From the NCBI GenBank assembly GCA_016292015.1, contig JAEEZY010000019.1:61415-93414 (forward strand): 32,000 nucleotides of DNA, in the 5' to 3' direction. Shown here one piece after another: positions 1 through 29,850 of the stretch. The stretch comes from Bacteroidales bacterium. Lineage in GTDB: Bacteria; Bacteroidota; Bacteroidia; Bacteroidales; P3. Each line of letters opens with the position of its first letter. Position 1 is the stretch's first letter. Made by a program: the position numbers and the translations under genes. Below the pieces are notes generated by a model. That model saw only the letters and a program-made list of their open reading frames with translations, was not told the DNA's origin and ran no database searches.

Positions 1-417
1 TAAAGAAGAGTTTTCGCATAATTTCGCAAGTTTTAGCAATTTTTCGCAATCAAACAGAAGAAACAGCGCAGCGTATTTCATTTTCGAGTTTTTCGCTCCA
101 GCAATAGACAATCACCCAAGCAAGACCTTTCGTGTTTTTCGAGTTTTTCGATGTTAAAAAAAATAACCCCAGCAAACTAACCCCATCAAGTAATTCGATG
201 TAAAAACAGAAGAAACAGCGCAGCGCATTTCATTTTCGAGTTTTTCGCCCAGCAATAGACAATCACCCAAGCAAGCCTTTTAGTTTTTTTCGAGTTTTTC
301 GATGTTCAAAAAAAATATTTTCGCACCTTTTGCCTAGAGCAAACCCATACAAGAGCCCAGTCAAAAGCAAAAGACAAGCAAGCCTTTTCGATTTTTCGAT
401 GTTAAAAAAATAACCCC
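1..417. repeat. Mosaic direct-repeat field upstream of rfbB, running off the left edge of the window
   Basis: Two ~112-bp units at 53-165 and 205-316 (period 152 bp, only a few mismatches). Four 10-bp phased units at 11-50 (ttttcgcata/atttcgcaag/ttttagcaat/ttttcgcaat). The motif gagtttttcgatgtt plus an A-run occurs at 141-155 and 292-306, with a variant at 389-403. No ORF on the + strand. Confidence 0.9.
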
Positions 418-1548
418 ATGAACATATTAATCACCGGCGGAGCCGGTTTCATCGGCAACCACGTAGTCCGCCTCTTCGTCAACAAGTACCCCCAGTACAA
501 GATCGTCAACCTCGACAAGCTCACCTATGCCGGTAACTTGGCTAACCTCAAGGATGTCGAGGCCAAGCCCAACTACAAGTTCGTCAAGATGGACATCTGC
601 GACTTTGAAGGCGTGATGAGACTGATGCAGGCCGAGCATATCGACGGAATTATCCACCTGGCCGCCGAGAGCCATGTGGACCGCAGTATCAAAGACCCCT
701 TCACCTTCGCCCAGACCAATGTCATGGGCACGCTGAGCCTGCTGCAAGCCGCCAAAGCCTATTGGGAGAGCCAGCCCGAGAAGTACGAAGGCAAGCGGTT
801 CTACCATATCAGCACCGACGAGGTGTATGGAGCGTTGGCGATGACGCATCCCGAAGGCATAGAGCCCCCGTACACCACCAAGGCCTCGTCCGGCCAGCAC
901 CATTTGGCCTATGGCGACCAGTTCTTCACCGAAGAGTTGAAGTACCAGCCCCACAGCCCCTATAGTGCTGCCAAGGCCAGCAGCGACCATTTCGTCAGAG
1001 CCTTCCATGACACCTTCGGTATGCCGACCATTGTCACCAACTGCTCCAACAACTACGGCCCCTACCAGTTCCCCGAGAAGCTGATACCCTTGTTCATCAA
1101 CAATATACGGCATCGGAAGCCGTTGCCCGTGTATGGCAGAGGCGAGAATGTGCGCGACTGGCTGTATGTCGAAGACCATGCCAGAGCCATCGATACTATC
1201 TTCCATAGAGGCAAGGTAGCCGAGACCTACAATATAGGAGGCTTCAACGAGTGGAAGAATATCGATATAGTCAAGGTCCTTATCAACACTGTTGACCGGT
1301 TGTTAGGCCGTCCCGAAGGAGCCGACATGGACCTGATTACATACGTCACCGACCGAGCCGGCCACGACCTGAGGTATGCCATAGACAGCAGCAAGCTGCA
1401 GCGAGAGTTAGGCTGGGAGCCCAGTCTGCAGTTTGAAGAAGGCATCGAGAAGACCGTGAGGTGGTATTTAGACAACCAAGCCTGGCTAGACAACGTGACC
1501 AGCGGCAAATACCAAGACTACTATAGAGACATGTACGACAAAAGATAA
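418..1548 (+). CDS. rfbB: dTDP-glucose 4,6-dehydratase
   Basis: 376 aa. N-terminal Rossmann motif ILITGGAGFIGNH, STDEVYG, and the YSAAKASSDH catalytic Y-x3-K region. End-to-end resemblance to RmlB/RfbB. Confidence 0.95.
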   Translation: MNILITGGAGFIGNHVVRLFVNKYPQYKIVNLDKLTYAGNLANLKDVEAKPNYKFVKMDICDFEGVMRLMQAEHIDGIIHLAAESHVDRSIKDPFTFAQTNVMGTLSLLQAAKAYWESQPEKYEGKRFYHISTDEVYGALAMTHPEGIEPPYTTKASSGQHHLAYGDQFFTEELKYQPHSPYSAAKASSDHFVRAFHDTFGMPTIVTNCSNNYGPYQFPEKLIPLFINNIRHRKPLPVYGRGENVRDWLYVEDHARAIDTIFHRGKVAETYNIGGFNEWKNIDIVKVLINTVDRLLGRPEGADMDLITYVTDRAGHDLRYAIDSSKLQRELGWEPSLQFEEGIEKTVRWYLDNQAWLDNVTSGKYQDYYRDMYDKR

Positions 1549-2567
1549 TCCACCCCAGAGTAAAAAGAAGAAATTTAGTAATAAAAAAGGTTTCAAGCAA
1601 AGCAAGAAAAAACAAGCAATAAACAGCCGAAGCAAGCCAACCCATGCAAGGTTTCAAGCGAAGCAAGAAACAAATTTAGAGTATTTCGTAAAGACCCCAG
1701 CAATCAACCCCAACAGGATTTCGAGTTTTTAGAGTTTTTCGATGTTATAAAAAGGTTTCAAGCGAAGCAAGAAAAAACAAGCACTAAAAAGAAGAAGCAA
1801 ACCAACCCCAGCAAGGTTTCAAGCGCAGCAAGAAACAAATTTCGAGTTTTTCGCTCCAGCAATAGACAATTACCCAAGCAAACCTTTTCGTGTCTTTCGT
1901 GTTTTTAGATGTTTAAATAAAGAAGAGTTTTAGCATAATTTCGCACTTTTAGCATCTTTTCGCAATAAAACAGAAGAAACAGCGAAGCGAATTTCAATTT
2001 AGAGTATTTCGTAAAGACCCCAGCAATCAACCCCAACAGAATTTTAGTGTTTTTCGAGTTTTTAGATGTTTTAAAAAAAACGTAGTCAAGTAACCCCAGC
2101 AATGTTTCAAGCGAAGCAAGAAACAAATTTCGAGTTTTTCGAGTTTTTAGATGTTAAAAAGAAAACCGTAGTCAAGTAACCCCAGCAAGGTTTCAAGCGA
2201 AGCAAGAAACAATTTTCGCAATTTTAGCCCAAGACCCCAGCAACCTAGAGCAAAAAAAAAAAGATTTTCGCATAATTTCGCACTTTTCGCATTTTTTCGC
2301 AATAAAACAGAAGAAACAGCGAAGCGAATTTCAATTTAGAGTATTTCGCCAATAACCCAGCAATCAACCCCAACAGAATTTTCGAGTTTTTAGAGTTTTT
2401 CGATGTTATAAAAAAGGTTTCAAGCGAAGCAAGAAACAAATTTCGAGTTTTTCGAGTTTTTAGATGTTTAAAAAAAAAGCCGTAGTCAACCAACCCCAGC
2501 AAGGTTTCAAGCGAAGCAGAGAACAAAGATTGTTCACTATGCCGAGCAAGAAAAAGACAACGAAGTC
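1549..2567. repeat. Mosaic direct-repeat field downstream of rfbB (about 1 kb, non-coding)
   Basis: Large units at ~1917-2250 and ~2255-2530 (period ~338 bp) and a partial copy at ~1669-1785. There are 8 copies of ggtttcaagcgaagcaagaaac-like 22-mers (starts 1589, 1650, 1754, 1815, 2103, 2189, 2416, 2503) and 6 copies of g(a/t)gttttt(c/a)gatgtt plus an A-run (1732, 1899, 2056, 2141, 2393, 2454). Segment 1917-1968 matches window positions 1-52. An A11 run lies at 2252-2262. Confidence 0.9.
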
Positions 2568-2679
2568 AAACCGTAAACCTTAAACGGTAAACCGTAAACT
2601 ACAAACCGTAAACTACAAACCGTAAACCGTAAACCATAAACTACTAAGCTACTAACCTGTCTGTAAACCCTAACCTAAC
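2568..2679. repeat. TAAACCG-type heptamer/14-mer low-complexity array abutting the start codon of the RelA/SpoT gene
   Basis: ccgtaaac occurs at 2571, 2592, 2606, 2620 and 2627. The 14-mer aaaccgtaaactac is tandem. It is followed by aaactactaagctactaacc and ctaacctaac, then the ATG at 2680. Confidence 0.85.
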
Positions 2680-3726
2680 ATGAAATACTCCCGAAATAAG
2701 ATCAACATCTCCGGTAAGGCCCTCTTGGCAGGACCCGATACAGGATTTCCATACACCGACGCAGGTCTTGTCGTTGATGATTGGCGCCGGCTCCACATGG
2801 TTCCGCTCGAGGAGTTAGTGTCCGAAGTGACGCGCCTGCTTGCCGATGCTGGAGTGTCGGCCGCCTTCTCTTCCCATCGCCTCAAGCGAATGACCTCCAT
2901 CGTGGCCAAGCTACGTCACAACCCAGGGATGGGGCTTGGAGGTCTGCAGGATATCGGAGGGGCCCGTTTTGTGTTCGAGGATATGACCTCATTACGGCAG
3001 GCGCAGAATGTGGTTGCGGAAGCGAGTTTTAGCCATTTTCTTCCCGACAGGGAACCGTACGACTATGTGCAGACACCCAAAGAGAGTGGCTATAGGAGTA
3101 TCCATTTTGCCTATAAGTATGTCAGTGACGATACCGACTATGATGGACTTAGGGTTGAGCTGCAGCTCCGAACGCGGTTGCAGCACGATTGGGCCATGGC
3201 CGTTGAGACGGCCGAACTCATCTCCCAGTCGTCGCTTAAGGCCAGTCTTGGCGACCAGAACTGGTTAGAGTTCTTCAAGCTGTGCAGTGCTGTCTTTGCG
3301 CAGAAGGAGTCGATGCCCGTAGCCGAGGCATACAGAGAGTTTACGGAAAGAGACTATTGTGAGAGGTATGCGCAGCTGGAGCAGCAGTATAAGTTTATGG
3401 ATCAGCTGAAAGCACTTGTGAGTGCGGTGAAGATAACCGAAGAGCATACGTTGAAGGAAGGGTATGCCGTGATTTTCATACAGTTTTTAGACAAGAGAGT
3501 CCAGTTGAGGCATTTTAATACGGGAGAGTTGGAGAAGGCTACGGACTATTATTCCGAAGTGGAGAAGACCGTGAATGATGAGAATTCGGCAGTTGTCCTT
3601 GTGTCAGTCTCCGACATGCAAGAGCTCCAGGAAGCCTATCCCAGCTATTTCTTGAATTCAGGCGAGTTCATCGCCGCACTGGATGATTTTCAGCGAGCCT
3701 GCCGCATAAAAGGATACATCAAGTAG
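2680..3726 (+). CDS. RelA/SpoT-domain (small alarmone synthetase / toxSAS-like) protein with an uncharacterised C-terminal domain of about 150 aa
   Basis: 348 aa. Synthetase-fold signature in the expected order: HRLKRMTSIVAKL, LQDIGGARFVF, PKESGYRSIHFAYKY, VELQLRTRLQHDWAMAVE. The N-terminal KYSRNKINISGKAL and W-R-x-x-H helix region is typical of stand-alone SAS/toxSAS proteins. There is no hydrolase (HD) domain and no adjacent partner ORF. Confidence 0.8.
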   Translation: MKYSRNKINISGKALLAGPDTGFPYTDAGLVVDDWRRLHMVPLEELVSEVTRLLADAGVSAAFSSHRLKRMTSIVAKLRHNPGMGLGGLQDIGGARFVFEDMTSLRQAQNVVAEASFSHFLPDREPYDYVQTPKESGYRSIHFAYKYVSDDTDYDGLRVELQLRTRLQHDWAMAVETAELISQSSLKASLGDQNWLEFFKLCSAVFAQKESMPVAEAYREFTERDYCERYAQLEQQYKFMDQLKALVSAVKITEEHTLKEGYAVIFIQFLDKRVQLRHFNTGELEKATDYYSEVEKTVNDENSAVVLVSVSDMQELQEAYPSYFLNSGEFIAALDDFQRACRIKGYIK

Positions 3727-3754
3727 AATGCCCATTGACCAGCTCACAATGAAC

Positions 3755-3930
3755 TATTAAGCGATTAAGCTAATTTCAGTAAACCGTAAACATTAAACGG
3801 TAAACTAAACCAACAGTAAACCGTAAACAGTAAACAGTAAACTATAAACCGTAAACCACTAACCCACTTAGCAATTAAACAATTAAGCTACTAAACAACT
3901 AAGCAATTAAACTACTAAGCCCCTAACCCA
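3755..3930. repeat. Second TAAACCG / TTAAGC low-complexity array, in direct orientation relative to 2568-2679
   Basis: aaaccgtaaacAttaaacggtaaac at 3781 matches aaaccgtaaacCttaaacggtaaac at 2568. ccgtaaac occurs at 3784, 3821 and 3849. aaactactaagc followed by ctaaccc at ~3909-3929 parallels 2638-2657. Confidence 0.85.
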
Positions 3931-3964
3931 ATTAACGGCCAATTTAATTAACGTTTAAAAGAAT

Positions 3965-5161
3965 ATGCGTAAAGTAATGCTAGTCTTTGGAACCCGCCCA
4001 GAGGCCATCAAGATGTGCCCCCTGGTCAAGGAGTTCCAAAAATACCCGAAGGACTTTGAAACCATCGTCTGCGTCACAGGACAGCACCGCGAGATGCTCG
4101 ACCAGGTGCTGCATATCTTCGAGGTCAAGCCCGACTATGACCTCAACATCATGAAACAAGGCCAAGACCTCTATGATGTCACCGCCCGAGTCCTTACAGG
4201 TATGCGCGATGTGTTCACCAAGGTCAAGCCCGATGTGGTGCTGGTTCATGGAGACACGACAACAAGCACCGCGGCAGCTTTAGCCGCTTTCTATCAGCAG
4301 ATACCAGTAGGTCATGTCGAGGCAGGCCTCCGCACGCACAACATCTACAGCCCCTGGCCCGAAGAGATGAACCGCCAGATCACAGGACGTATCGCCACTT
4401 ACAATTTCTCACCCACACCACTCTCAGAAAGCAACCTGAAGGACGAGAAAGCCCAAGGCCAGATCTTCGTGACGGGCAATACCGTTATCGATGCCCTCCA
4501 CATGGTGGTGGAAAAGTTGAAAACCGACAAAGCCTTGGCCGATGAGCAAATCAACGTCCTAAAAGCCGCAGGCTATGATGTGACAAGATTATTCTCTAAT
4601 TCTCAAATTCTTGACAGAAAAAAGCTAGTCTTGATTACCGGCCATCGCCGCGAGAATTTCGGTGACGGTTTTATCTCTATGGTGACAGCCATGAAAGACC
4701 TCAGCGAGAAGTATCCCGATGTGGACTTTGTCTATCCCATGCACCTTAACCCCAACGTACGTAAACCCATCCACGAAGTCTTTGGTGAGGACTTGACGAA
4801 ATACGAGAACTTCTTCTTCATCGAACCGCTGCAGTATTTGGAGTTCGTCTATCTGATGGAGAAATCGACAGTTGTCCTTACCGATAGTGGTGGTATCCAG
4901 GAAGAAGCCCCCGGCCTTGGCAAGCCCGTGCTTGTGATGCGCGACACCACCGAGCGCCCGGAGGCCCTCAAGAGTGGCACGGTACACCTTGTGGGTACCA
5001 ACCACGACCTCATTGTTAGAGAGGTAAGTACCCTCCTCGATGACACAGCCGCCTACGAGCGCATGAGCAAAGCCGTGAACCCCTATGGCGACGGCAAAGC
5101 TTGTAGCCGCATTGTGCGGGCACTCAATGGTGAAAAGGTCAAGCGCTACGAGGTGAAATAA
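3965..5161 (+). CDS. wecB: UDP-N-acetylglucosamine 2-epimerase (non-hydrolysing)
   Basis: 398 aa. Motifs FGTRPEAIKM, HVEAGLRT, TGNTVIDAL, ITGHRRENFG, HLNPNV, TDSGGIQEEAP, VMRDTTERPE. Confidence 0.93.
   Translation: MRKVMLVFGTRPEAIKMCPLVKEFQKYPKDFETIVCVTGQHREMLDQVLHIFEVKPDYDLNIMKQGQDLYDVTARVLTGMRDVFTKVKPDVVLVHGDTTTSTAAALAAFYQQIPVGHVEAGLRTHNIYSPWPEEMNRQITGRIATYNFSPTPLSESNLKDEKAQGQIFVTGNTVIDALHMVVEKLKTDKALADEQINVLKAAGYDVTRLFSNSQILDRKKLVLITGHRRENFGDGFISMVTAMKDLSEKYPDVDFVYPMHLNPNVRKPIHEVFGEDLTKYENFFFIEPLQYLEFVYLMEKSTVVLTDSGGIQEEAPGLGKPVLVMRDTTERPEALKSGTVHLVGTNHDLIVREVSTLLDDTAAYERMSKAVNPYGDGKACSRIVRALNGEKVKRYEVK
4591..4614 (+). repeat. 24-bp element attctctaattctcaaattcttga inside the wecB coding sequence
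   Basis: Exact 24/24 match to 5608-5631. It encodes FSNSQILD in a loop just before the conserved ITGHRRE motif. Confidence 0.9.
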
Positions 5162-5170
5162 TAAACAAGG

Positions 5171-5196
5171 TCAAGAATTAGAGAATTTGAGAATTG
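5171..5196 (-). repeat. Imperfect inverted copy of the gagaatt-type element, immediately upstream of the GxxExxY gene
   Basis: tcaagaattagagaatttgagaattg. Its reverse complement caattctcaaattctctaattcttga is a permuted version of the 24-mer at 5608-5631. Confidence 0.6.
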
Positions 5197-5199
5197 TTG

Positions 5200-5604
5200 A
5201 TGGCTTTACTATATCCGGAACTAAGCAAAAGAATTCTGGGAATTGCGATGCAGTTGCATCGTGAAATGGGTTGCGGGTTTAAGGAAAAGGTGTATCAGGA
5301 TGCCTTTGAAGTACTCCTCAAGGAGAATAACATAAACTATGAACGCGAAAAGCATATCGACCTCAAGTTTCATGGGGTAAAACTGGAACACGATTTCTTC
5401 TATGACTTCCTTATTGATAATAAGATAGGGGTGGAGTTGAAGGCAGTGTCGGAAATAGTTGGAGAGTTTGAGGCTCAGATAATCAACTACCTGCATGTGA
5501 GCAATCACAAGCTTGGTTTGTTGCTGAATTTTGGTACCACGAGTCTGGAATACAAATGGTATCCCAACGAGTGGCACTACAGACAATGCGCAAGCATTGG
5601 TTGA
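5200..5604 (+). CDS. GxxExxY family protein (PD-(D/E)XK-like small protein common in polysaccharide loci)
   Basis: About 134 aa counted from the ATG at 5200 (the ORF track starts at TTG 5194). Motifs GCGFKEKVYQDA (the GxxExxY signature), DFLIDNKIGVELKAV and KLGLLLNFG. GC looks lower than in the flanking wecB and wecC. Confidence 0.8.
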   Translation: MALLYPELSKRILGIAMQLHREMGCGFKEKVYQDAFEVLLKENNINYEREKHIDLKFHGVKLEHDFFYDFLIDNKIGVELKAVSEIVGEFEAQIINYLHVSNHKLGLLLNFGTTSLEYKWYPNEWHYRQCASIG

Positions 5605-5670: not shown

Positions 5671-6897
5671 ATGATTAACGTTATCGGACTGGGCTACATC
5701 GGACTGCCCACAGCATTGATGATGGCTTCGCATGGTGTTGAAGTCATAGGTACAGACTACAACAAAGAACTGGTGGCAACACTGAATGCAGGAAAGACCA
5801 CCTTTAAGGAGGACGGCCTTGATGAACTCTTCCAGGATGCGCTGAAAAAGGGCATCAAGTTCACCACCGAGTATCAGAAGACCGACATATACATCGTGAG
5901 CGTACCCACACCTTACGACAAGTTCAGCAAGAAGGTCGATGCCTGCTATGTGGTGTCAGCTGTCAAAGATGTGATGAAGGTCTGCCCCAAAGGAGCCACT
6001 GTGGTGATTGAGAGCACTGTCAGCCCCGGAACCATCGACAAGTTCGTCCGTCCTGTCATCGAGGCCAACGGCTTCAAGATAGGCGAGGATATCAACCTCG
6101 TCCACGCCCCCGAGCGCATCATCCCAGGTAATATGGTCTATGAGTTGTTGCATAATAACCGCACCATCGGTGCCGACAGCCGTGAGATTGGTGAGAAGGT
6201 GAAGAAATACTATGCTTCCTTCTGCCAAGGCGAGATTGTGGTGACTGACATCCGTACTGCCGAGATGACCAAGGTGGTGGAGAATACCTACCGAGCCGTG
6301 AACATCGCCTTCGCCAACGAGCTCAGCCGCATCTGTCGCCACGACAATATGGATGTGTACGAGATAATCAAGATTTGCAACATGCACCCCCGTGTCAATA
6401 TCTTGCAGCCCGGTCCTGGAGTCGGCGGTCATTGCATCTCCGTTGACCCGTGGTTCCTCGTGGGCGACTATCCCCAGCTGGCCAAGGTGATTGACGAGAG
6501 CATGAAGACCAACGACTATCAGCCAGTCTTCGTCCTCGAGCGCATCCATGAGATCATGGAAGAGCACCATATTACCGACAACCGCCGAGTGGGATTGTAT
6601 GGCATCACATACAAGGAGAATGTGGATGATGTAAGAGAGAGTCCGACCTTGCAGATGATCGACATACAGGAGCGCCATCTTGCCCGTCCTTTGAAGAGCT
6701 TCGACCCCTTCTTCACCGACAAAGAGATTGTGAAGAACCAGCTTCTCGACTTCGACCAGTTCCTCAACGAGGTTGACATGGTAGTCATCATGGTGAAGCA
6801 CGACCATATCAAGCAGAATTGGGACAAGCTGAAAGGCAAAGTCATCCTTGACTGCCATAATATCTGCCCGTTGATAGAGAACGTCTATCACATCTAA
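5671..6897 (+). CDS. wecC: UDP-N-acetyl-D-mannosamine dehydrogenase
   Basis: 408 aa. N-terminal GLGYIGLP NAD-binding motif, a UDP-glucose/GDP-mannose dehydrogenase family layout, and the catalytic-Cys region GVGGHCISVDP. It is paired with wecB. Confidence 0.9.
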   Translation: MINVIGLGYIGLPTALMMASHGVEVIGTDYNKELVATLNAGKTTFKEDGLDELFQDALKKGIKFTTEYQKTDIYIVSVPTPYDKFSKKVDACYVVSAVKDVMKVCPKGATVVIESTVSPGTIDKFVRPVIEANGFKIGEDINLVHAPERIIPGNMVYELLHNNRTIGADSREIGEKVKKYYASFCQGEIVVTDIRTAEMTKVVENTYRAVNIAFANELSRICRHDNMDVYEIIKICNMHPRVNILQPGPGVGGHCISVDPWFLVGDYPQLAKVIDESMKTNDYQPVFVLERIHEIMEEHHITDNRRVGLYGITYKENVDDVRESPTLQMIDIQERHLARPLKSFDPFFTDKEIVKNQLLDFDQFLNEVDMVVIMVKHDHIKQNWDKLKGKVILDCHNICPLIENVYHI

Positions 6898-6918
6898 CAT
6901 CATACATCTTACATCAAA

Positions 6919-6970
6919 CATCCTTGACTGTCACAATATTTGTCCATTGTACGGTGTTTATCGTATTTAA
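6919..6970 (+). pseudogene. Orphan remnant of a second wecC 3' end
   Basis: catccttgactgTcaCaatatTtgTccAttg matches 6843-6873 of the intact gene. It translates to ILDCHNICPL in both copies, and every difference is a synonymous third-position change. The tail then diverges and ends in TAA at 6968-6970. Confidence 0.8.
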
Positions 6971-7129
6971 GAATATTTATGATGTAAGGGGAGGTATGTA
7001 AGATGAGGATAGTTGAATATACAATAAAAAAATAGTGTATGTCGTTTGCCGAAATAGTAATTAAACTCAAAGAGGACCCTCTAGGGCAAACAGTAGAACT
7101 ACATCTTTCGTTTCCCGTAAAACGTATAT

Positions 7130-8656
7130 ATGCAGATACTAGATTGTACCTTTCGTGATGGTGGTTACTACACAGATTGGGATTTCAATGAGGATATTGT
7201 ACGCACCTATTTGGAGGGAGTAAACAATCTTCCCATTGATTATATTGAATTGGGGTACCGTAATAACCCAGAGAAAGAGTATCTGGGTAAGTTTGGCTAC
7301 ACTCCGGTATACCTTCTCAAGCAAGTTCGTGAGTTGTCAAAGAAGAAGCTCGCAGTGATGCTGAACGAGAAGAACACAAAGGTTGAAGACCTTCAGAATT
7401 TGACAGAACCAATCAAAGGATTGGTGGATATGATTCGCTTGGCCGTTGATCCCAAGAATCTTCTGCGAGCTATTAACTTGGCTAAGGCTATCAAGACTCA
7501 AGGATTCGAGGTGGGCTTCAACATTATGTATATGTCTAAATGGGAACAATATGAAGAGTTATATGAAAAGCTGAGTTCCCTTAACGGAGTTGTAGATATC
7601 TTGAATATGGTTGACTCCTTTGGAGGTATCATGCCCAATGAGGTCACTGCCATGGTGGGGAAACTTCGTGGTATCGTTACATGTAAGATAGGTTTTCATG
7701 GTCATAATAACTTGGAGATGGCGTTAGCAAACACCTTGGCTGCAATCAATAGTGGTGTGGATTCCGTCGATGCAACCATTCTTGGTATGGGGCGAGGAGC
7801 AGGAAATTTGAACACGGAGTTGCTCCTTACTTACCTGAACAAAGATGGTCTTGGAGTGGATTTTAATGCCTTGAGTGATGTTATCACAGCATTTCAACCT
7901 CTATACGAAACTTATAGATGGGGAACACAGTTGCCTTATATGATTTCCGGTGCTAATTCGCTGCTACAGAGAGAAGTAATGGCATTGGTAACAAATCGTG
8001 TTTATTCTTTTGATAGTATAGTAAGAGGTGTGCAAAACAAGAAGGATGGGATTGTGGATAATGCCAAATATCCTTTGCTTGAAAAAGCTGAATTTGATGA
8101 CGTGATTATCATCGGTGGAGGGGAATCACCTGTAGATCATTTAGAAGGCATTACCAACTTCATTGCTAAGAAAAAGAATATTGCTCTTGTGTTTGCAACA
8201 GCCAGACACGCAGGTAAGTTTATTGATATAAATGTACCTCAGTATTATTGCTTATTGGGAAGAGAAGCCAAACGCCTTAGAGCTAATGTGAAAGCAGAAC
8301 AGTTTAAGGCTAAGTGCATTTTACCACCATATCCACGCAAACTTGGAACGGATGTTCCGTCTTTTGCAGAAAAAGCAACTTACGAATTGCCCAGGATAGA
8401 ATTTACAACAGAGTTTCAAGACTCTTGTACAACACTGGCCATCCAGACTGCCTTGAATATCAGCAAGGGAAACATTTACATTGTTGGTTACGACGGCTAT
8501 CCTGGGAGTGTGCTTTCTGAAAAGGAAGTTGCTTTAAGCAACGAAAATATGGCTTTACTACAGGATTATGAGAAATACACTGGCAAGAAGTTGATGTCGT
8601 TGACACCCTCTTTATATCCTGAATTAGAAATAGTGTCATTATATCAATTCATATAA
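7130..8656 (+). CDS. HMGL-like / DRE-TIM aldolase-domain protein with an extra C-terminal domain of about 200 aa
   Basis: 508 aa. The N-terminus ILDCTFRDGGY, together with later HGHNNLEMALANTLAAI and GMGRGAGN, is typical of pyruvate-carboxyltransferase / 4-hydroxy-2-oxovalerate-aldolase-type TIM barrels. The C-terminal region (VIIIGGGES ... IYIVGYDGY) loosely resembles the MptE/DUF115-like pattern of the ORF at 22145. Confidence 0.7.
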   Translation: MQILDCTFRDGGYYTDWDFNEDIVRTYLEGVNNLPIDYIELGYRNNPEKEYLGKFGYTPVYLLKQVRELSKKKLAVMLNEKNTKVEDLQNLTEPIKGLVDMIRLAVDPKNLLRAINLAKAIKTQGFEVGFNIMYMSKWEQYEELYEKLSSLNGVVDILNMVDSFGGIMPNEVTAMVGKLRGIVTCKIGFHGHNNLEMALANTLAAINSGVDSVDATILGMGRGAGNLNTELLLTYLNKDGLGVDFNALSDVITAFQPLYETYRWGTQLPYMISGANSLLQREVMALVTNRVYSFDSIVRGVQNKKDGIVDNAKYPLLEKAEFDDVIIIGGGESPVDHLEGITNFIAKKKNIALVFATARHAGKFIDINVPQYYCLLGREAKRLRANVKAEQFKAKCILPPYPRKLGTDVPSFAEKATYELPRIEFTTEFQDSCTTLAIQTALNISKGNIYIVGYDGYPGSVLSEKEVALSNENMALLQDYEKYTGKKLMSLTPSLYPELEIVSLYQFI

Positions 8657-11345: not shown

Positions 11346-12455
11346 ATGTCAGAGAAACAAATAACTGTCACTTCGCCGTTGTTGCCTGACCTCGACGAGT
11401 TTAATGAGATGCTCAAAGAAATCTGGGCAAGCAAATGGATTACCAATATGGGACAATTTCATCAACAGTTGGAAAAAGAACTATGTCAGTATCTGAAAGT
11501 GCCTTTCATTAGTCTTTTCACAAATGGTACGTTACCGCTGTTGACCGCATTACAAGCTCTGCATATTACAGGTGAGGTTATAACCACGCCATATAGCTTT
11601 GTTGCAACCACTCATAGCATTTGGTGGAATGGTTGTCGCCCGGTATTTGTGGATATCGAGGAGGAGACTTGCGGCATTGACCCTGATAAGATTGAGGCAG
11701 CAATAACCCCCAAGACAACAGCAATCATGCCTGTCAGTTGCTATGGCAAGCCATGCAAGATGGACGAGATTCAAGCCATAGCCGACAAGTATGGCTTGAA
11801 GGTTATTCATGATGCAGCCCATGCCTTTGGTGTGGAAGTGGATGGTGAAAGTTGGGCAAGTAAAGGTGATATGATTTCGCTGTCATTCCATGCCACTAAG
11901 GTTTACAATACACTTGAAGGAGGGGCACTTGTGGTGAAGGATGAGGCCACCAAGAAACGAATCGACTTCTTGAAGAATTTTGGCTTCGCAGGGGAGACAG
12001 AAGTTGTCGCGCCAGGTATTAACAGCAAGATGGATGAAGTGCGTGCGGCATACGGATTACTTAACTTGAAGCAGGTGGATGAGGCCATTGAGAAGCGTCG
12101 TCAAGTGGCTGTGAAATACCGTAATGCATTGCGAAATGTGCCAGGTATTCGTTTCTTCGATGATATGCCCGGAGTGCGACATAATTATAGTTATTTCCCC
12201 ATCTTTATCAATGCCGAGGAGTATGGTCAGACACGAGATGAACTGTACTTCAAGATGCGTGAGGCCAATGTATTAGGTCGTCGATATTTCTATCCGCTGA
12301 TAAGTACCTTCAGTACCTATCGTAGCTTGCCAAGTGCCGGTGCAGAGAATCTGCCCGTGGCCACCAAGGTCGCCAATGAAGTCATCTGCCTTCCGATGCA
12401 CCATGAACTAAGTCAGAATGATTTGGAAAGAACCATAGATATAATACTGAAATGA
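11346..12455 (+). CDS. DegT/DnrJ/EryC1-family PLP aminotransferase, dTDP-4-amino-4,6-dideoxyhexose synthase (WecE/VioA-like)
   Basis: About 369 aa counted from the ATG at 11346 (the track starts at TTG 11340). The PLP-lysine motif SLSFHATK resembles WecE SFHETK. No 3,4-ketoisomerase gene is present, which favours a 4-amino product. Confidence 0.85.
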   Translation: MSEKQITVTSPLLPDLDEFNEMLKEIWASKWITNMGQFHQQLEKELCQYLKVPFISLFTNGTLPLLTALQALHITGEVITTPYSFVATTHSIWWNGCRPVFVDIEEETCGIDPDKIEAAITPKTTAIMPVSCYGKPCKMDEIQAIADKYGLKVIHDAAHAFGVEVDGESWASKGDMISLSFHATKVYNTLEGGALVVKDEATKKRIDFLKNFGFAGETEVVAPGINSKMDEVRAAYGLLNLKQVDEAIEKRRQVAVKYRNALRNVPGIRFFDDMPGVRHNYSYFPIFINAEEYGQTRDELYFKMREANVLGRRYFYPLISTFSTYRSLPSAGAENLPVATKVANEVICLPMHHELSQNDLERTIDIILK

Positions 12456-13099: not shown

Positions 13100-14050
13100 A
13101 TGAGTAAAGCATTTATCTTCCCTGGTCAAGGCTGCCAGAAGGAGGGAATGGGTGGTGATTTGTATGCTCAGTTCCCAAAAGCCAAAGAGTTGTTTGAGCG
13201 TGCTAATGATTTCCTTGGTTATAAGATTACCGACGTGATGTTTCACGGTTCGGAAGAGGAACTGATGGAAACCAAAAATACCCAACCCTCAGTGTTTTTA
13301 TATGAGACTATTCTCGCCATGTGTCAGGATTATGTGAAGCCTGATTGCGTTGCTGGTCACTCACTTGGTGAATTTGCCGCTTTGGTTATTGCTGGTTCCA
13401 TTACTTTTGAGGAAGGCTTGAAACTGGTTTTGAATCGAGCATTGATCGGTCAAAAGGCATCAGATGAAGCTCCTGTCAAGACAGGTATGGGTGCTGTAAT
13501 AGGACTTCCAGACGAGTATGTTGAGAAACGCATCAAAGAGATTTGGGAAGAAGTTGGCGAACCGCTTTATTTTGCCAATTACAACGGTCCCGGTCAGGTG
13601 GTTATCTCTGGTTCTCGCAAAGCGGTGCGTGTTGCATGTAAAGCCTTTATGAAGGAAGGTGCAAAGAAAGCTGTGCCTCTGGCTATTGGCGGTTCATTCC
13701 ACACTCCTTTTATGGATGAGGCACGTGAAGAATTAGGTGCTATTATAAAGGAGGTTGTCTTCAAACCCGCTTCTATTCCTGTTTATCAATGTGTAGATGC
13801 ACTGCCGCATACAGACCCTGAAGAGATTCGTGCTAATCTGATTCAACATATTACGCATCCTGTTCTTTGGACGGCAATGACGCACAATATGGCAAAGGAT
13901 GGCGTAACTGAGTTCTATGAGGTTGGAACAGATGATACTTTGGAAAAGATAGTACGCCGCATGTATCCAAACCTGCACCAGCAGTCACTGCTTGATGTTC
14001 CGACATACGCAGGTAAGATTAAGAATTTTAAAGTTGTAAAAGAAGGATAA
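13100..14050 (+). CDS. ACP S-malonyltransferase (FabD-like acyltransferase)
   Basis: 316 aa. Motifs FIFPGQGCQ, nucleophile elbow AGHSLGEFAAL, and NYNGPGQVVISG. Confidence 0.88.
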   Translation: MSKAFIFPGQGCQKEGMGGDLYAQFPKAKELFERANDFLGYKITDVMFHGSEEELMETKNTQPSVFLYETILAMCQDYVKPDCVAGHSLGEFAALVIAGSITFEEGLKLVLNRALIGQKASDEAPVKTGMGAVIGLPDEYVEKRIKEIWEEVGEPLYFANYNGPGQVVISGSRKAVRVACKAFMKEGAKKAVPLAIGGSFHTPFMDEAREELGAIIKEVVFKPASIPVYQCVDALPHTDPEEIRANLIQHITHPVLWTAMTHNMAKDGVTEFYEVGTDDTLEKIVRRMYPNLHQQSLLDVPTYAGKIKNFKVVKEG

Positions 14051-14052
14051 GT

Positions 14053-14460
14053 ATTGATATTTCACATATTGAACATATCGGTATAGACGTTAAGAGTATT
14101 GAGGAGTCACTCCCATACCATGAAACAGTGCTTGGCTTCAAGTGCTATGCAATAGAAGAAGTAGCCGACCAGAAAGTAAAGGCAGTTTTCTTAAAAATGG
14201 GTGAAACCAAGCTGGAATTACTGGAACCATCTTCTGAGGAAAGTCCAAAAGCTAAGTTCCTTGAAAATAGAGGCTCTGGTATCCATCATACAGCATTTGC
14301 CGTGTAAGATGGCGTTGCTATTGCACTTTGAGAGTGTAAGAACAAAAAAGTAAGGCTAATGGATTTTGAACACCGAAATTGTGCTGAATGGCTGAATGTC
14401 GCTTTCCAAAATCCAAAGTCAACACAATGAGTTCTTACAGAACTTTGTGAAAAACAATAA
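14053..14460 (+). pseudogene. Methylmalonyl-CoA epimerase / VOC (glyoxalase-fold) pseudogene
   Basis: A single reading frame reads IDISHIEHIGIDVKSIEESLPYHETVLGF...KAVFLKMGETKLELLEPSSEESPKAKFLENRGSGIHHTAFAV*DGVAIAL*ES..KKVRLMDFE...VAFQNPKSTQ*VLTEL. There are in-frame stops at 14305 (TAA), 14329 (TGA) and 14428 (TGA), no ATG start, and no frameshift. Confidence 0.8.
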
Positions 14461-14516
14461 ATCAAGATAATTTTTGAGTTCAATAATTTAAGTTCAACAT
14501 TTAAAATTTTAGAATT

Positions 14517-14744
14517 ATGGAATTAAATGAATTTGTAACAAGATTTGCTGAGGAGTTCGATGAGACTCCCGCTGAACAGTTCAAGGCTGACACCGTGTTT
14601 AAGTCACTCGACGAGTGGGGTTCACTGACCGCACTTTCTATCATTGCAATGGTAGATGAGGAGTTTGAAAAGCGCATTACTGGCGCAGACCTCCGTTCTG
14701 TCAACACACTGGAGGAATTGTACAACTTAATTCAGAGCAAATAA
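14517..14744 (+). CDS. Acyl carrier protein (phosphopantetheine-binding)
   Basis: 75 aa and acidic. LDEWGSLTALSIIAMV matches the (D/G)SL phosphopantetheine serine helix-II pattern. It lies among fatty-acid-synthase-type genes. Confidence 0.75.
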   Translation: MELNEFVTRFAEEFDETPAEQFKADTVFKSLDEWGSLTALSIIAMVDEEFEKRITGADLRSVNTLEELYNLIQSK

Positions 14745-18322: not shown

Positions 18323-18958
18323 ATGATTAAAGTAGAAAGAGTAATAAATGAGTTGATGACTTCGAACTGCTATGTTGTATATGATGAAGATACCCTAAGG
18401 TGTCTCGTCATAGATCCTGCCAGTGAGAAGTCCCTTCGGGAGATAGAGTATATAGAAAAGAACGGATTGACGCTAGACTATATTCTCTTAACCCATGAGC
18501 ATACAGACCACACATGGGGTGTTAACGCTTTGCTTGGGAAATATCCTTCATCAAAGGTGATTTGCTCAGAACTATGCAAAGAGGCTTTGCCAAGAGAGGC
18601 TAAAGCCTATTTCCAATTCTATTATGATGACCCAGATTACATATACAATGTCGAACGGGTCGATGTTACTACAGAGGAATTGAATTGGCACATGGAGTGG
18701 GTAGGGCATAGCATTAAGTTTATCGCTACACCAGGTCATAGTCCCGGCTCTGTTTGCATAGCTATTGATACTATGGTTTTTGGAGGAGATACCCTGATGC
18801 CATTCAAGCCGTTTATCAAAAAACGTAATGGTGGGTCAGTTGAGCAGTTTCAGGAGAGCGTAAAGCAAATGGTAGAAGCCTTTCCAGCGGATACAATAGT
18901 ATATCCAGGACATGGAGAAAGTGGGCAAATGAAGGATTATAATAATAACATTAAATAA
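18323..18958 (+). CDS. MBL-fold metallo-hydrolase (glyoxalase II-like, candidate thioesterase)
   Basis: About 211 aa counted from the ATG at 18323. HxHxDH motif LTHEHTDHTWG, plus a later PGHSPGS and a distal PGHG. Confidence 0.8.
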   Translation: MIKVERVINELMTSNCYVVYDEDTLRCLVIDPASEKSLREIEYIEKNGLTLDYILLTHEHTDHTWGVNALLGKYPSSKVICSELCKEALPREAKAYFQFYYDDPDYIYNVERVDVTTEELNWHMEWVGHSIKFIATPGHSPGSVCIAIDTMVFGGDTLMPFKPFIKKRNGGSVEQFQESVKQMVEAFPADTIVYPGHGESGQMKDYNNNIK

Positions 18959-19002
18959 GTTTATATAAGGCAAATAGAACATTTAGTAGCCCGGCAGATA
19001 CT

Positions 19003-19273
19003 AGACGGAAGAATTTTTCTGATGATGAAATACAGAGCGTGTGGAAGAAGGCAAAAAAATGATAGTGAAAATCCCGCCGTATATAGACAGGACTATTCAG
19101 GTGCATGGATTAGGCGTGACAAATCCGGAAATACAGAATCCACACTCGGCTGGGAGATAGACCATCGCAAACCAGTTGATAAAAACTGATCTGATGATTT
19201 GTCAAATATAGACCATCTCCAATGGAACAATAATCGTACACAGAGTGACGATTGCCCCCAATGGAAAACCTAG
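19003..19273 (+). pseudogene. Small HNH-endonuclease-family pseudogene
   Basis: Frame A reads RRKNFSDDEIQSVWKKAKK, then runs into stops at the A-run near 19053-19060. A shifted frame reads ENPAVYRQDYSGAWIRRDKSGNTESTLGWEIDHRKPVDKN*SDDLSNIDHLQWNNNRTQSDDCPQW. The GWEIDH ... SDDLSN ... N-N-N layout is the HNH core. There is at least one frameshift plus an internal TGA. Confidence 0.6.
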
Positions 19274-19382
19274 AAGAAGGTCGGTCAAAGTTTGACAGGC
19301 GACATTACAATGTGGAGCAAGAATAGGTGTGGGAAACTGACTAGTGGTTAATGTGGAATAAGGAGGAAAAGAAATTAGAATA

Positions 19383-20837
19383 ATGGCAGAAGGAAGCTTA
19401 AAAGATAAGACTGTTAAAGGGACATTCTGGAGTGCAACGGATGCGGCATTTAGGTATGGTGTAACTTTTGTGGTAGGGATTGTTCTTGCACGTCTGCTTA
19501 CTCCGGAAGATTATGGACTGTTAGGAATCCTGACTATCTTCATATCCCTGTTTAACGTAATTGTTGACGGTGGTTTCACTAATGCCATTATTAGGAAACA
19601 GAATGCGTCAGATGAGGACTACTGCACGGCATTCTATACAAATCTGGTCGTTTCGATATTCCTTTCGGTACTTCTTTTTTTTTGTGCGAAGCCGATTGCG
19701 ATACTCTTTGAACGTCCAGAACTGGTGGCATTAACCAGAGCAGTTTCTCCTGTGGTGGTAATAAATGCGCTGGCCATAGTGCAAAAAGCAAGACTTACCA
19801 AACGGATAGATTTTAAGACACAGACCATAATCACCATCATTACTGCTACAACGAGTGGAGTGATTGGTATCGGTATGGCATTGGCAGGTTGTGGTGTATG
19901 GGCTTTGGTTGGACAGCAGATATCAAACTATGTATTAAATGCAGGTCTATTATGGTTTTTCAACAAGTGGTATCCCAAACTGGTTTTCAGCTGGAAGAGT
20001 TTCAAAGACCTTTGGTCGTTTGGCTGGAAATTGCTTGCTAGTGGGGTCCTCGGTGCATTAACCGATGAACTGAATCAGGCTGTGATAGGAAAATCTTTTT
20101 CACCTCAATCGTTGGGGCAGTTTACACGGGCTCGACAGTTTGCAAACCTGCTTTCCCATAATGTTACAACGATTGTTCAGCGGGTTAGCTTCCCCGTACT
20201 TAGTGCTATTCAGGATGATAAGCAGAGATTGAAGTCTGGATACAAGCGCGTGATAAAAACAACTATGCTGCCAACATTTATCTCCATGCTTATGTTGGCA
20301 GCTATTTCGAGACCGTTAATACTAACATTAATAGGTGCCAAGTGGGAGATGGCAACAACGATTCTGCCTATTTTGTGCTTTAGCCTGATGCTGCACCCCC
20401 TGCATGCGCTTAATCTGAATGCAATACAGGTATGTGGAAGAAGTGATTTGACATTAAAACTTAAAATAATTAAAACCATCCTTGCGTTAATACCGATAGG
20501 CTTGGGTATTTATTTTAATGATATATTCTGGTTGCTTTGGGGTGAAGTGGTAACAAGCTATTTCTGCTATTATTTGAATGCTTATTATTCCAAGGATCTT
20601 ATTAATTATCCTATTATGGAACAGCTGAAAGACGTGACACCGTCACTCCTTGTCGCATTGGCCATTGCAGTACCAGTCTATCTGTTAAATTTTATTCCAA
20701 TTTCCTTTTATTTAGTGCTTCTACTGCAACTGTTAGTAGGATGTGGCTTGACAATATTTATTAATGAAAGAGTATTGTTGCCGGAGTATATCGAAATTAA
20801 GGGAATTATCATGAAGTTCTTTAAGAAAAAGGAGTAG
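19383..20837 (+). CDS. wzx: Wzx-type polysaccharide flippase (MOP/PST family)
   Basis: 484 aa and polytopic. The N-terminus KGTFWSATDAAFRYGVTFVVGIVLARLLTPEDYGLLG is typical of PST-family flippases. Confidence 0.85.
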   Translation: MAEGSLKDKTVKGTFWSATDAAFRYGVTFVVGIVLARLLTPEDYGLLGILTIFISLFNVIVDGGFTNAIIRKQNASDEDYCTAFYTNLVVSIFLSVLLFFCAKPIAILFERPELVALTRAVSPVVVINALAIVQKARLTKRIDFKTQTIITIITATTSGVIGIGMALAGCGVWALVGQQISNYVLNAGLLWFFNKWYPKLVFSWKSFKDLWSFGWKLLASGVLGALTDELNQAVIGKSFSPQSLGQFTRARQFANLLSHNVTTIVQRVSFPVLSAIQDDKQRLKSGYKRVIKTTMLPTFISMLMLAAISRPLILTLIGAKWEMATTILPILCFSLMLHPLHALNLNAIQVCGRSDLTLKLKIIKTILALIPIGLGIYFNDIFWLLWGEVVTSYFCYYLNAYYSKDLINYPIMEQLKDVTPSLLVALAIAVPVYLLNFIPISFYLVLLLQLLVGCGLTIFINERVLLPEYIEIKGIIMKFFKKKE

Positions 20838-28157: not shown

Positions 28158-28670
28158 TGTCACGAAAGAGCATAATTATCCTTACCCATCAGTATTCGAG
28201 TGATACCAGGTACAATGGACGTTGGACCAAAGTGGTGGCATACTTTGCTCACGAATGGGCGAAAGAAAATGATGTATTGATTATTATAAACTCATCAAAG
28301 TTTCCAAAGTTGTATTATTTCTTTGGAAGTATCATGAGATTAATTGCGAGATTTACCTCCCAAGCCCCGGCTCTAATAACAGATCAAGATTGGCGCCAGC
28401 CTTTTGACTTCGGTTATGCTGGTATTAATGCGTATAACCGTCCAATGCTAAATTTTGGCCGCCTGCAAATTATAGTGGTTCCAGATTGAGAATCAAGTGA
28501 AAGAGATTATCAGCATTTGCAAACAGAACGGTTTTAAGCCGGATATTATTGATGCCCACTGGTTGAATCCTCAACATGATTTGCTTAAACCATTAGGCGA
28601 TTATTATCATGTAAAGACAGCTTTGGTGCTTCATTTGGAGGCCATAAAATCACAGTATTATACCCATTAA
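28157..28670 (+). pseudogene. Frameshifted and truncated glycosyltransferase (N-terminal GT-B domain only)
   Basis: The ORF to 28489 reads MSRKSIIILTHQYSS.... It continues in another frame from ~28476 as WFQIENQVKEIISICKQNGFKPDIIDAHWLNPQHDLLKPLG...ALVLH, with a stop at 28668. The FKPDII(D/H)AHW block is typical of GT4 N-terminal domains. The catalytic C-terminal domain is absent. Confidence 0.65.
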
Positions 28671-28806
28671 ATGAGCTAAAACTCTATGAATTAGCAAAGT
28701 GGGTGTAGATCGCATTATGGCGTGAAAGTGCTTAATGAATGCACTCACTAAAAGAAACTCCATTAGTATGTTCTTTTGGTATCTCGACATTATCTCAGCA
28801 TAGGCT

Positions 28807-29850
28807 ATGGAAAGAATAAAGGGGCGTTTGCTCTATATAATTGATGGCCATACTGGCCTTCTGTGTAAACAAATGTCATTTTTCCTTGTTGATTTAACAA
28901 CTCATGAGGAAAAATTCATTTGCACATTGCCTGTTGGGAAAAAGACTGCCATTTTATCCCGTAGCAGACTGTTTTCTCGCTTGAAAAGATTGGAACCTAA
29001 GTGTGCGGGTCGTTTGTCGGAAACAGAATTTGTGGTCTCGCTTTTACGAACATGCTGGCTGGTAGATGTGGCTAAAAAAAAATGTACCAAGTTATGTGAT
29101 AATCCCACGGGATTCAGTGAAGTGATAAACTTCTGCTCTGTGGAAGATGGCATTTTATGGGGCGACTACGGAAGGAATGCAGAAAACCGTGAAGTTAAGA
29201 TATATCATTTAGGTAAAGACCAACGGATCTCTGTGGTACATTCTTTCCCCTCGGGTACGGTAAGACATATTCACAATATCGTTGAAAGGGATAACGGTTA
29301 TGTCCTCTTCGTTGGTGACAATGAAGCCAAGGCGGGTATCTATCTGGTCAACAAAGAATGGACGGAAGTACAGCCTTGGAAAACGGGACAGCAAAAGTAT
29401 CGTGCTGTGGTGGGTTTCCCATACAATGGGGGGGTGTTATATGCTACAGACTCTGTGGAAACGGAAAATCATATAAGGTATGTATCAGAAGAAGGAGAAG
29501 AAACGATATTAGCTCCTCTCAATGGTAGTTGTATATATGGATGTGAGACAAAGAAATATTATCTGTTTTCAACAACGGTTGAGCCACATGAGGGAGGCGG
29601 AAAACTGTCGCTTGTATTTGAGAAACTTGGAGGCGGTATCAAGAACCGTGATGTGACAATTGTTGCAGTGTCAAAAAAGGACTTGTTTGTGCGACAGGTG
29701 GCATCGTTCAGAAAAGACGTATGGCCTATGAAATTATTCCAGTACGGGCGATGCATATTTGCTGGGGGACAAAAGGAAATGAACACTGCATGGTGTAGTC
29801 CTGTAGCATGTAATAAATATGATGGGAGAACAATAAAAATAGAGTTATAG
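28807..29850 (+). CDS. Hypothetical protein (no family recognised; beta-rich, apparently soluble)
   Basis: A 347-aa intact ORF in the operon orientation. No hydrophobic N-terminus or transmembrane stretch is seen, and I recognise no motif. Confidence 0.5.
   Translation: MERIKGRLLYIIDGHTGLLCKQMSFFLVDLTTHEEKFICTLPVGKKTAILSRSRLFSRLKRLEPKCAGRLSETEFVVSLLRTCWLVDVAKKKCTKLCDNPTGFSEVINFCSVEDGILWGDYGRNAENREVKIYHLGKDQRISVVHSFPSGTVRHIHNIVERDNGYVLFVGDNEAKAGIYLVNKEWTEVQPWKTGQQKYRAVVGFPYNGGVLYATDSVETENHIRYVSEEGEETILAPLNGSCIYGCETKKYYLFSTTVEPHEGGGKLSLVFEKLGGGIKNRDVTIVAVSKKDLFVRQVASFRKDVWPMKLFQYGRCIFAGGQKEMNTAWCSPVACNKYDGRTIKIEL

Follow-up and report, generated by a model that had tools for sequence, protein, structure and literature searches.

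Kilobase-scale direct-repeat arrays on both sides of rfbB in a Bacteroidales genome are the largest blocks of a dispersed, lineage-specific, non-coding repeat family

The bacterial interspersed mosaic elements (BIMEs) and repetitive extragenic palindromes (REPs) of Enterobacteria and Pseudomonas are non-coding, intergenic, species-specific mosaics of short modules in a fixed order, whose copy number varies at each site, and they are often co-transcribed inside operons. REP units are imperfect palindromes of 20-40 bp that alternate in orientation; most carry GTAG or CGTC tags, and RAYT transposases are associated with them. A formal definition of the REP has been given (PMC3733652). BrickBuilt, an element of Porphyromonas gingivalis, is always intergenic, is confined to one lineage and occupies ~19 sites per genome; it has a tandem short-period core without unique spacers, in which one 23-nt brick lies between a leader and a tail, its ends are inverted repeats and it has bidirectional promoter activity (PMC4596501). 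Heptamer repeats of the TAACTGA type, found in Beggiatoaceae, Cyanobacteria and Bacteroidetes, consist of a single 7-nt word, are intergenic and often end a few bases before a start codon; as direct repeats they form long arrays in some Bacteroidetes (PMC4679880). Here, we describe a repeat family from an uncultured rumen Bacteroidales bacterium (GCA_016292015.1; G000 below, a metagenome-assembled genome (MAG) of 2.54 Mb in 35 contigs, 97.6% complete), which came to light in a 32,000-nt stretch of contig JAEEZY010000019.1 (C22:61415-93414, hereafter the window) as arrays of direct repeats enclosing the gene rfbB. These arrays are the largest blocks of a dispersed, lineage-specific, non-coding repeat family, and they are no control device built for rfbB.

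The repeat region measures ~4.1 kb (4,139 bp) and is made up of three non-coding, same-strand spacers that head a glycan locus. A first-pass annotation of the window had described a mosaic of ~1.4 kb; the mosaic is real, but the window holds only its final 1.4 kb, the remainder continuing upstream on the contig. The first spacer, S1 (C22:56650-58760, 2.1 kb, + strand), runs from the stop codon of a YgiQ-type radical-SAM gene to the ugd promoter region. S2 (C22:60820-61831, 1.0 kb, + strand, sense) begins at the stop codon of a PDDEXK_3/GxxExxY gene and ends at the ATG of rfbB, and its last 417 bp are positions 1..417 of the window. S3 (C22:62965-63980, window 1549..2566, 1.0 kb, + strand, sense) is the mosaic array 3' of rfbB, which itself occupies window 418..1548 (+ strand; 376 aa, dTDP-glucose 4,6-dehydratase family) and has arrays on both sides. 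Among the 673 gaps of the genome that are free of open reading frames (ORFs; median gap 188 bp), S1, S2 and S3 rank 1st, 12th and 7th by size, and to this extent the earlier view of the spacers as anomalous stands; the rest of the locus, however, is not as tightly packed as had been thought, since it too has gaps of 230-690 bp (window 3726-3965, 6897-7130, 14050-14744, 18958-19383 and 28489-28807). The repeat family encodes nothing, and ORFs of up to 115 aa on the minus strand of the arrays are by-products of the repeats.

The elementary word of the family is TTT(C/A)G. In the 4,139 bp the + strand has 182 of these words and the other strand no more than three; of the distances between neighbouring words, 78 measure 9 bp and 27 measure 10 bp. 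The alternation of C and A between copies, seen at first as a recurrent single difference, is real and general: where the + strand of the arrays reads TTTNG, the variable base is C in 127 instances, A in 55 and T in one, and it is never G. These words contain 130 of the 186 CpGs of the arrays. TTTG occurs once on the sense strand in 4.1 kb and 43 times on the other strand, the genome mean being 4.9 per kb.

The words make up five modules that follow each other in cyclic order, usually A-B-F-D with or without E, in units of 125-165 bp; S3 also contains a 337-bp super-unit with copies at 1915 and 2252 (window coordinates here and below; all modules lie on the + strand). Module A (11..50; also 1928-1966 and 2265-2303) has four TTT(C/A)GCA words at 10-11 bp spacing with phased T-tracts. 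It is followed by module B (60..80; further starts at 212, 1976 and 2313), a weak hairpin of the form GAAACAGCG-(A/C)AG-CGnnTTTC, and by module F (82..127; further starts at 233 and 1840), a CA-rich linker TTTCGAGTTTTTCGC..CAGCAATAGACAATCACCCAAGCAAG to which a second CA-rich linker, C (..AAGACCCCAGCAATCAACCCCAACAG; 1673-1721, 1996-2044 and 2333-2381), is related. Module D (128..167, 40 nt) comprises three TTT(C/A)GNGT words at 9 bp, then GATGTT and an A-run; its nine copies, where 0.3 are expected, start at 128, 279, 376, 1719, 1886, 2043, 2128, 2380 and 2441, and the core GAGTTTTT(C/A)GATGTT is present in seven exact copies in the window. Module E is the 22-mer GGTTTCAAGCGAAGCAAGAAAC (1589..1610), again a weak hairpin, with copies at 1589, 1650, 1754, 1815, 2103, 2189, 2416 and 2503. 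Every D module contains an ATG, which mostly opens a mini-ORF of 1-9 codons before a stop (153-182, 304-340, 399-413, 1744-1752, 1911-1922, 2068-2076, 2153-2173, 2405-2413 and 2466 onward, + strand); the peptides are M, ML, MF, MFK, MLK, MLKK, MLKRKP and MLKKITPAN, and the final MLKK-stop ends 4 nt 5' of the rfbB ATG. Most of the repeat structure reported by the first-pass annotation was recovered: the ~95-bp module starting at 1, 1917/1918 and 2255 (families D11 and D5, 79-91% identity), the ~112-bp module at 53, at 205 and, incomplete, at 1840 (families D2 and D5), and the eight copies of the 22-mer, all on the + strand between 1589 and 2524 (three exact, five with 1-3 mismatches, 0 expected). 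The nine reported copies of gagttttt(c/a)gatgtt correspond to the nine D modules with their seven exact cores, but only four of the nine are then followed by AACCCCAGCAA.

A BLAST search of the spacers against their own genome returned at least 12 other intergenic sites of 45-420 bp on contigs C4, C18, C23, C29, C32 and C34, and diverged copies of the family are present on C15 and C26. The neighbours of these dispersed copies, named by eye, are unrelated (topoisomerase III (topB), UvrC, ComEC, IorB and an AsmA-like protein), and the orientation to genes is free: at four sites the array is antisense between same-direction genes, and elsewhere it lies upstream or downstream of a co-oriented gene. 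The modules are thus dispersed beyond the locus, but the locus preference is strong, S1-S3 (a 7.4-kb stretch) holding ~2/3 of the bases of the family. Two copies lie at overlapping contig ends (the end of C34 and the start of C23), so that the assembly is broken in the repeat. Each spacer or locus has its own variant of module B, both in G000 and in a sister species (G075), which points to duplication in place. A search for a Y1/RAYT transposase (PF01797) gave no match in G000 (97.6% complete), the identical search matching six of 14 control genomes; the ends of the dispersed copies fall in module A or D, where neither shared inverted termini nor flanking duplications were found.

When set beside the systems introduced above, the family resembles BIME/REP in being dispersed, intergenic, lineage-specific and a modular mosaic, but it is direct-only, its hairpins are weak with seven pairs and no Y1/RAYT gene was found. 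Common ground with BrickBuilt includes the order Bacteroidales, restriction to one lineage and a core of short tandem periods that has no unique spacers and recurs at many places between genes. It differs from BrickBuilt in having a 9-10 bp period within composite units of 125-165 bp and arrays of up to 2.1 kb, and in that no sense -7 box was found; nor were the terminal inverted repeats and target-site duplication that mark miniature inverted-repeat transposable elements. Like heptamer repeats it consists of intergenic direct repeats of short period, but where those have a single 7-nt word, its words measure 9-10 nt, share the fixed core TTT(C/A)G and are embedded in a five-module mosaic; the heptamer arrays proper of G000 (AGTTTTT/AGTTTCA, CACTAAT and AAACCGT) are separate neighbours. 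It is also unlike a CRISPR array, because the segments between modules are all repeated and there are no unique spacers. The family has in common with REP/BIME, BrickBuilt and heptamer repeats that it is intergenic, confined to a lineage, modular and variable; it is without the defining features of each of them, and what sets it apart is the combination of kilobase-scale, direct-only arrays in a glycan operon with a 9-10 bp TTT(C/A)G code.

The heptamer arrays deserve a description of their own. AGTTTTT/AGTTTCA arrays form a second dispersed family at a minimum of 12 intergenic sites of G000, often adjoining the mosaic (including C22:21680-21860, C32:76040-76230, C34:145830-145900, C34:198480-198620, C18:140810-140880, C11 and C1); CACTAAT and TAACGCA-type heptamers are also present in the genome. 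Module D resembles AGTTTTT heptamers into which CG or AG has been inserted. Within the window, an AAACCGT-type heptamer array (2567..2679, + strand), which belongs to a separate repeat family, lies between S3 and a gene with a RelA/SpoT domain.

A single D+B copy of the mosaic family (G000 C34:274180-274290, L003:2180-2290; G017 C8:7070-7140) is found after a small ORF and faces the stop codon of a primase-helicase gene (BT4734-like/DUF3987). Between the orthologous copies of the two species the difference is exactly at the C/A position of one word, which reads TTTCGATG in G000 and TTTAGATG in G017. Judged by sequence comparison, the BT4734-like/DUF3987 gene is probably on a mobile element, because its 93% identity between G000 and G017 exceeds the 83% of YgiQ. 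A link between the repeat family and this element was considered and rejected: the gene is flanked by family copies in G000, but in G017 the upstream side carries no array, and the array-bearing sister species has no close copy of the gene.

The family is narrowly distributed. BLAST searches in 24 other species of the genus returned nothing, and of the 136 species of the genus in which module B was counted, two alone show it amplified: G000, with 17 copies, and G075, with 10. The genes of G075 are 78-89% identical to those of G000 and the modules 75-81% identical. This sister species carries the family at the syntenic S1 (0.9 kb) and S2 (0.15 kb) positions and has none at S3, and its rfbB ATG is abutted by a different module; its other arrays (0.4-0.8 kb) have no counterpart at the orthologous sites of G000, where there are heptamer arrays or nothing. 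The A variant of the word accounts for 30% in G000 and 6% in G075. Across the bacterial family, triplets of TTT(C/A)G at 9-10 bp are patchy (80 in G000, 62 in G240, where they are mostly TTTAG, 59 in G083, 46 in G075 and 39 in G048); most genomes have 0-3, and controls with the reversed pattern also gave values near 0-3.

The exact 22-mer of module E has only three matches in 185,579 species genomes, all in Actinomycetes and attributable to chance. The exact 19-mer of module D, TTT(C/A)GAGTTTTT(C/A)GATGTT, is found in many MAGs and contigs of rumen Prevotellaceae and Bacteroidales, part of the matches (those outside rumen taxa or within ORFs) being expected by chance. In these genomes, module D is usually single or forms an inverted pair with a loop of 10-45 nt, adjoins other short-period arrays and occurs in either orientation. 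These elements of rumen Prevotellaceae and other Bacteroidales MAGs, which have apparently not been described before, share with the present family the exact 19-mer, the C/A alternation, the intergenic position and the short-period neighbours; they differ in that the metagenome contigs checked lack modules A, B and E, and no kilobase-scale array locus was seen except on the sister species' own contigs. The inverted D pairs (L321, L273, L319, L320, L324 and L276; rumen Prevotellaceae/Bacteroidales MAGs) read AACATC(G/T)AAAAAC.CGAAA, loop, TTTCGAGTTTTT(C/A)GATGTT; often one arm is of the A form and the other of the C form, which results in a regular mismatch at that position of the predicted stem.

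The arrays differ between otherwise near-identical assemblies. The exact RfbB protein was found on seven contigs from a related metagenome set, and six assemblies were compared. Bar one base in one assembly, coding DNA over 5-10 kb is identical to that of G000. S2 agrees at every base in all six, S3 is identical in one further assembly, and all other differences fall inside S1, S3 or the heptamer array. The gap between ygiQ and ugd is 2,541 bp in G000 against 1,828 and 1,433 bp in two other assemblies, and that from rfbB to the next gene is 1,131 bp against 818 and 731 bp in two others (S3 being shorter by 0.31-0.40 kb), whilst the heptamer array (2567-2679) is ~52 bp shorter in one assembly (L021). 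The differences are deletions whose junctions lie in paralogous repeat copies, one of them with a 123-bp exact overlap, and one S3 variant is without a 337-bp super-unit. Variation in copy number and arrangement, which had been raised as a question from the window alone, is thus seen in both length and order, between assemblies as well as between sister species. The pattern of the deletions matches unequal recombination, and it also matches a short-read assembler skipping a loop.

The earlier statement that all copies are direct is correct in that no inverted repeat of 14 nt or more was found in the 3 kb searched, but two modules, B and E, hold short weak hairpins around GCG(A/C)AGC. These are the only self-complementary pieces, and GCG(A/C)AGC occurs 32 times on the + strand of the arrays and 0 times on the other strand. 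The hairpins have seven pairs (5+2 or 4+3) and DNA folding energies of -1.6 to -5.2 kcal/mol. Covariance analysis of the modules gave 0 compensatory pairs: among 19 distinct copies of the E hairpin there is no compensatory change, and the outer pair is broken in seven. GCGAAGC is an unusually stable DNA mini-hairpin, which is taken here as a lead only. An Rfam scan of 8.5 kb at E values up to 1 gave only a chance-level match (20 bits against a gathering score of 94), and the sense-strand RNA is less folded than dinucleotide shuffles in all 13 windows of 300 nt (z +0.2 to +3.4; antisense mixed). The absence of an Rfam match, the poor folding and the lack of covariation in the hairpins together leave the array of small RNAs that had been proposed without support.

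An array of promoters, another of the roles first suggested, is not supported: the sense strand of the 4.1-kb arrays has a single TTTG and no -7 box TAnnTTTG of the Bacteroidetes sigma-A type, the genome average of this box being 0.33 per kb per strand. The sole good -7 box nearby, TATCTTTG at C22:58858, falls in the interval that separates S1 from ugd, and it is also conserved in the sister species. A scan for sigma-70 promoters and intrinsic terminators gave counts equal to those of shuffles and no terminator-like site on the sense strand of the arrays, the minus-strand 'terminators' being module B hairpins. Because the arrays have neither a sense -7 box nor a terminator and the nearest box lies 5' of ugd, we infer that transcription from the ugd promoter continues across S2 and S3 and serves both rfbB and the genes that follow S3. 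The arrays are 36-38% G+C (genome 51%), with a sense strand that is A-rich and has slightly more C than G (20% vs 16.5%). With Bolshoy-Trifonov wedge values, each of the three spacers has a mean predicted curvature of 15 degrees per 30-bp arc, against 11.3 +/- 0.6 in shuffles; with the same values, 200 random 1-kb windows of the genome give 9.4 +/- 1.2 with a maximum of 13.7, so that the spacers exceed them all, and the curvature peaks match or surpass a phased A-tract control, module A being predicted to be strongly curved. The GC skew of the genome was too noisy for a replication-strand test.

On balance, the arrays are best read, with confidence somewhat above even, as a lineage-specific, mosaic, minisatellite-like repeat that expands and contracts where it stands, is tolerated in the untranslated parts of a long operon and is transcribed passively along with it. 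The resizing would come about through recombination (unequal and homologous) or replication slippage among the direct copies of the family itself, with local homogenisation and the rare appearance of the repeat at a new intergenic site. S2 and S3 would most likely be passive spacers, promoter-less and terminator-less, in an operon read from the ugd promoter, with S1 upstream of that promoter; the outcome would be AT-rich, strongly curved DNA and weakly folded, A-rich untranslated RNA. As kilobase-long direct repeats surround ugd and rfbB, this segment should be prone to deletion and duplication. Several observations sit uneasily with a purely passive repeat and hint at selection. Identity between the sister species is 75-81% for the modules, against 78-89% for the genes, and the arrays persist at two syntenic places; all three spacers are oriented with transcription; T-tracts on the sense strand are almost never followed by G (TTTG 1 vs 43); position 4 of the word is C or A only, across species; module D recurs in many rumen Prevotellaceae/Bacteroidales MAGs; and the predicted curvature is above that of all 200 random 1-kb genome windows. 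The differences in length between assemblies, moreover, could reflect short-read collapse of 120-bp exact repeats. From the roles suggested at the outset, a protein-binding array or a recombination substrate is possible.

Should the DNA be read by a protein, the words would be phased sites for a nucleoid-associated, iteron-binding or gyrase/IHF-like factor and, together with the curvature, would form an architectural or insulating structure, adjustable through array length, where the glycan operon begins. We regard this as unlikely, though it is suggested by the strictness of word and period where the following bases are free, by the patchy recurrence of the same word and period with other surrounding letters in other species and genera (G240 62, G083 59, G048 39), by the sharing of module D among rumen Prevotellaceae, by the tolerance of only C or A at position 4 and by a predicted curvature that is the highest in the genome; a role at the DNA level would also suit the family because its orientation to genes is free at the dispersed sites. 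The spacing, however, is mostly 9 bp, as against a helical repeat of 10.5 bp, no candidate protein was identified, the arrays extend far past the reach of any known upstream element, sister species vary freely in the presence and size of the arrays (S3 is absent in G075), and the curvature figure depends on the wedge parameters chosen. It is a more speculative proposal, and distinctly improbable, that TTT(C/A)G is a code for a DNA-, single-stranded DNA- or RNA-binding protein common to rumen Bacteroidales, with the arrays as a protein-loaded architectural, insulating or attenuating element whose length and C/A pattern would act as a fast-evolving knob on the expression of surface glycans. A role confined to RNA is less probable again: co-transcribed, unstructured, A-rich spacers would load an RNA-binding factor and so set the amount of the rfbB and downstream messages, and the factor could be Rho (by attenuation, with an antiterminator needed), S1 or RRM-type proteins, or ribosomes on the D mini-ORFs. 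The three spacers are indeed all sense, from the ugd promoter to the genes that follow S3 there is no promoter box or terminator on the sense strand, shuffles fold better than the sense RNA in every one of the 13 windows, C exceeds G, and in most D copies the ATG is followed by a stop within 1-9 codons, the last stop lying 4 nt before the rfbB ATG. Heptamer repeats that adjoin start codons have been proposed as post-transcriptional sites (PMC4679880), which also counts for such a role. Set against this, four dispersed sites have the array in antisense orientation between genes that share one direction, C outnumbers G only slightly (20% vs 16.5%), the spacer S1 is upstream of the promoter and S3 is dispensable in the sister species.

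The two remaining alternatives are largely excluded. That the modules are multiplied copies of an rfbB leader or promoter, in an array private to rfbB, was the reading first suggested by the last D module (376-415), which does run into the rfbB start codon at 418 with ...AAAATAACCCC, as in another copy. This is now very improbable: the modules recur next to unrelated genes, in either orientation, at no fewer than 12 intergenic sites elsewhere, and in 18 other Bacteroidales the sequence of the 70 nt upstream of rfbB bears no relation to them. Only one of 80 rfbB loci has any phased array, and that array is unrelated; a different module adjoins the ATG in the sister species, and there is no sense TAnnTTTG. 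An assembly artefact, in the form of chimeric or inflated metagenome arrays, has the least to recommend it, despite the two copies at contig ends (the C34 end and C23 start overlap) and the lengths of S1 and S3 that vary between assemblies, since six assemblies agree on S2 and one further assembly has an identical S3, the family is present at syntenic places in the sister species, and most copies can be crossed by reads because they are only 60-95% alike.

The findings matter beyond this locus. Uncultured rumen and gut Bacteroidales hold much unannotated, fast-changing intergenic repeat DNA, and a family of this kind can swell to kilobases inside a surface-glycan operon, where such arrays can be the sole variable part of otherwise identical strains and are predicted to be the most strongly curved kilobase-scale DNA in the genome. 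If the length changes are real, the arrays readily give rise to deletions or duplications that take in ugd and rfbB, and they can serve as a strain marker, and if the words are read by a protein they would represent a new kind of regulatory array. In practice, such arrays break assemblies and may be mistaken for gene-specific control regions.

Further irregularities were noted around the spacers. Two small PDDEXK_3 (GxxExxY) genes stand amid the sugar-nucleotide genes of the locus (L001:12408-12818 and window 5194-5604), one of them directly 5' of S2. Upstream of the window, a CA-rich tandem duplication of ~107 bp spans the ygiQ stop codon (L001:8341-8596; C22:56340-56595), and the tail of YgiQ is here low-complexity and Pro/Asn/Thr-rich, the protein having 725 aa against ~600-640 in relatives; together these features indicate that repeat-like DNA has been drawn into the reading frame. 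The ugd frame, also upstream of the window, contains short-period repeats (CAGCCAT four times and GAATTCA-type runs; L001:11640-11670 and 12050-12085), which fall in the long linker that joins the N-terminal domain to the central one (a Pfam gap, residues 170-235).

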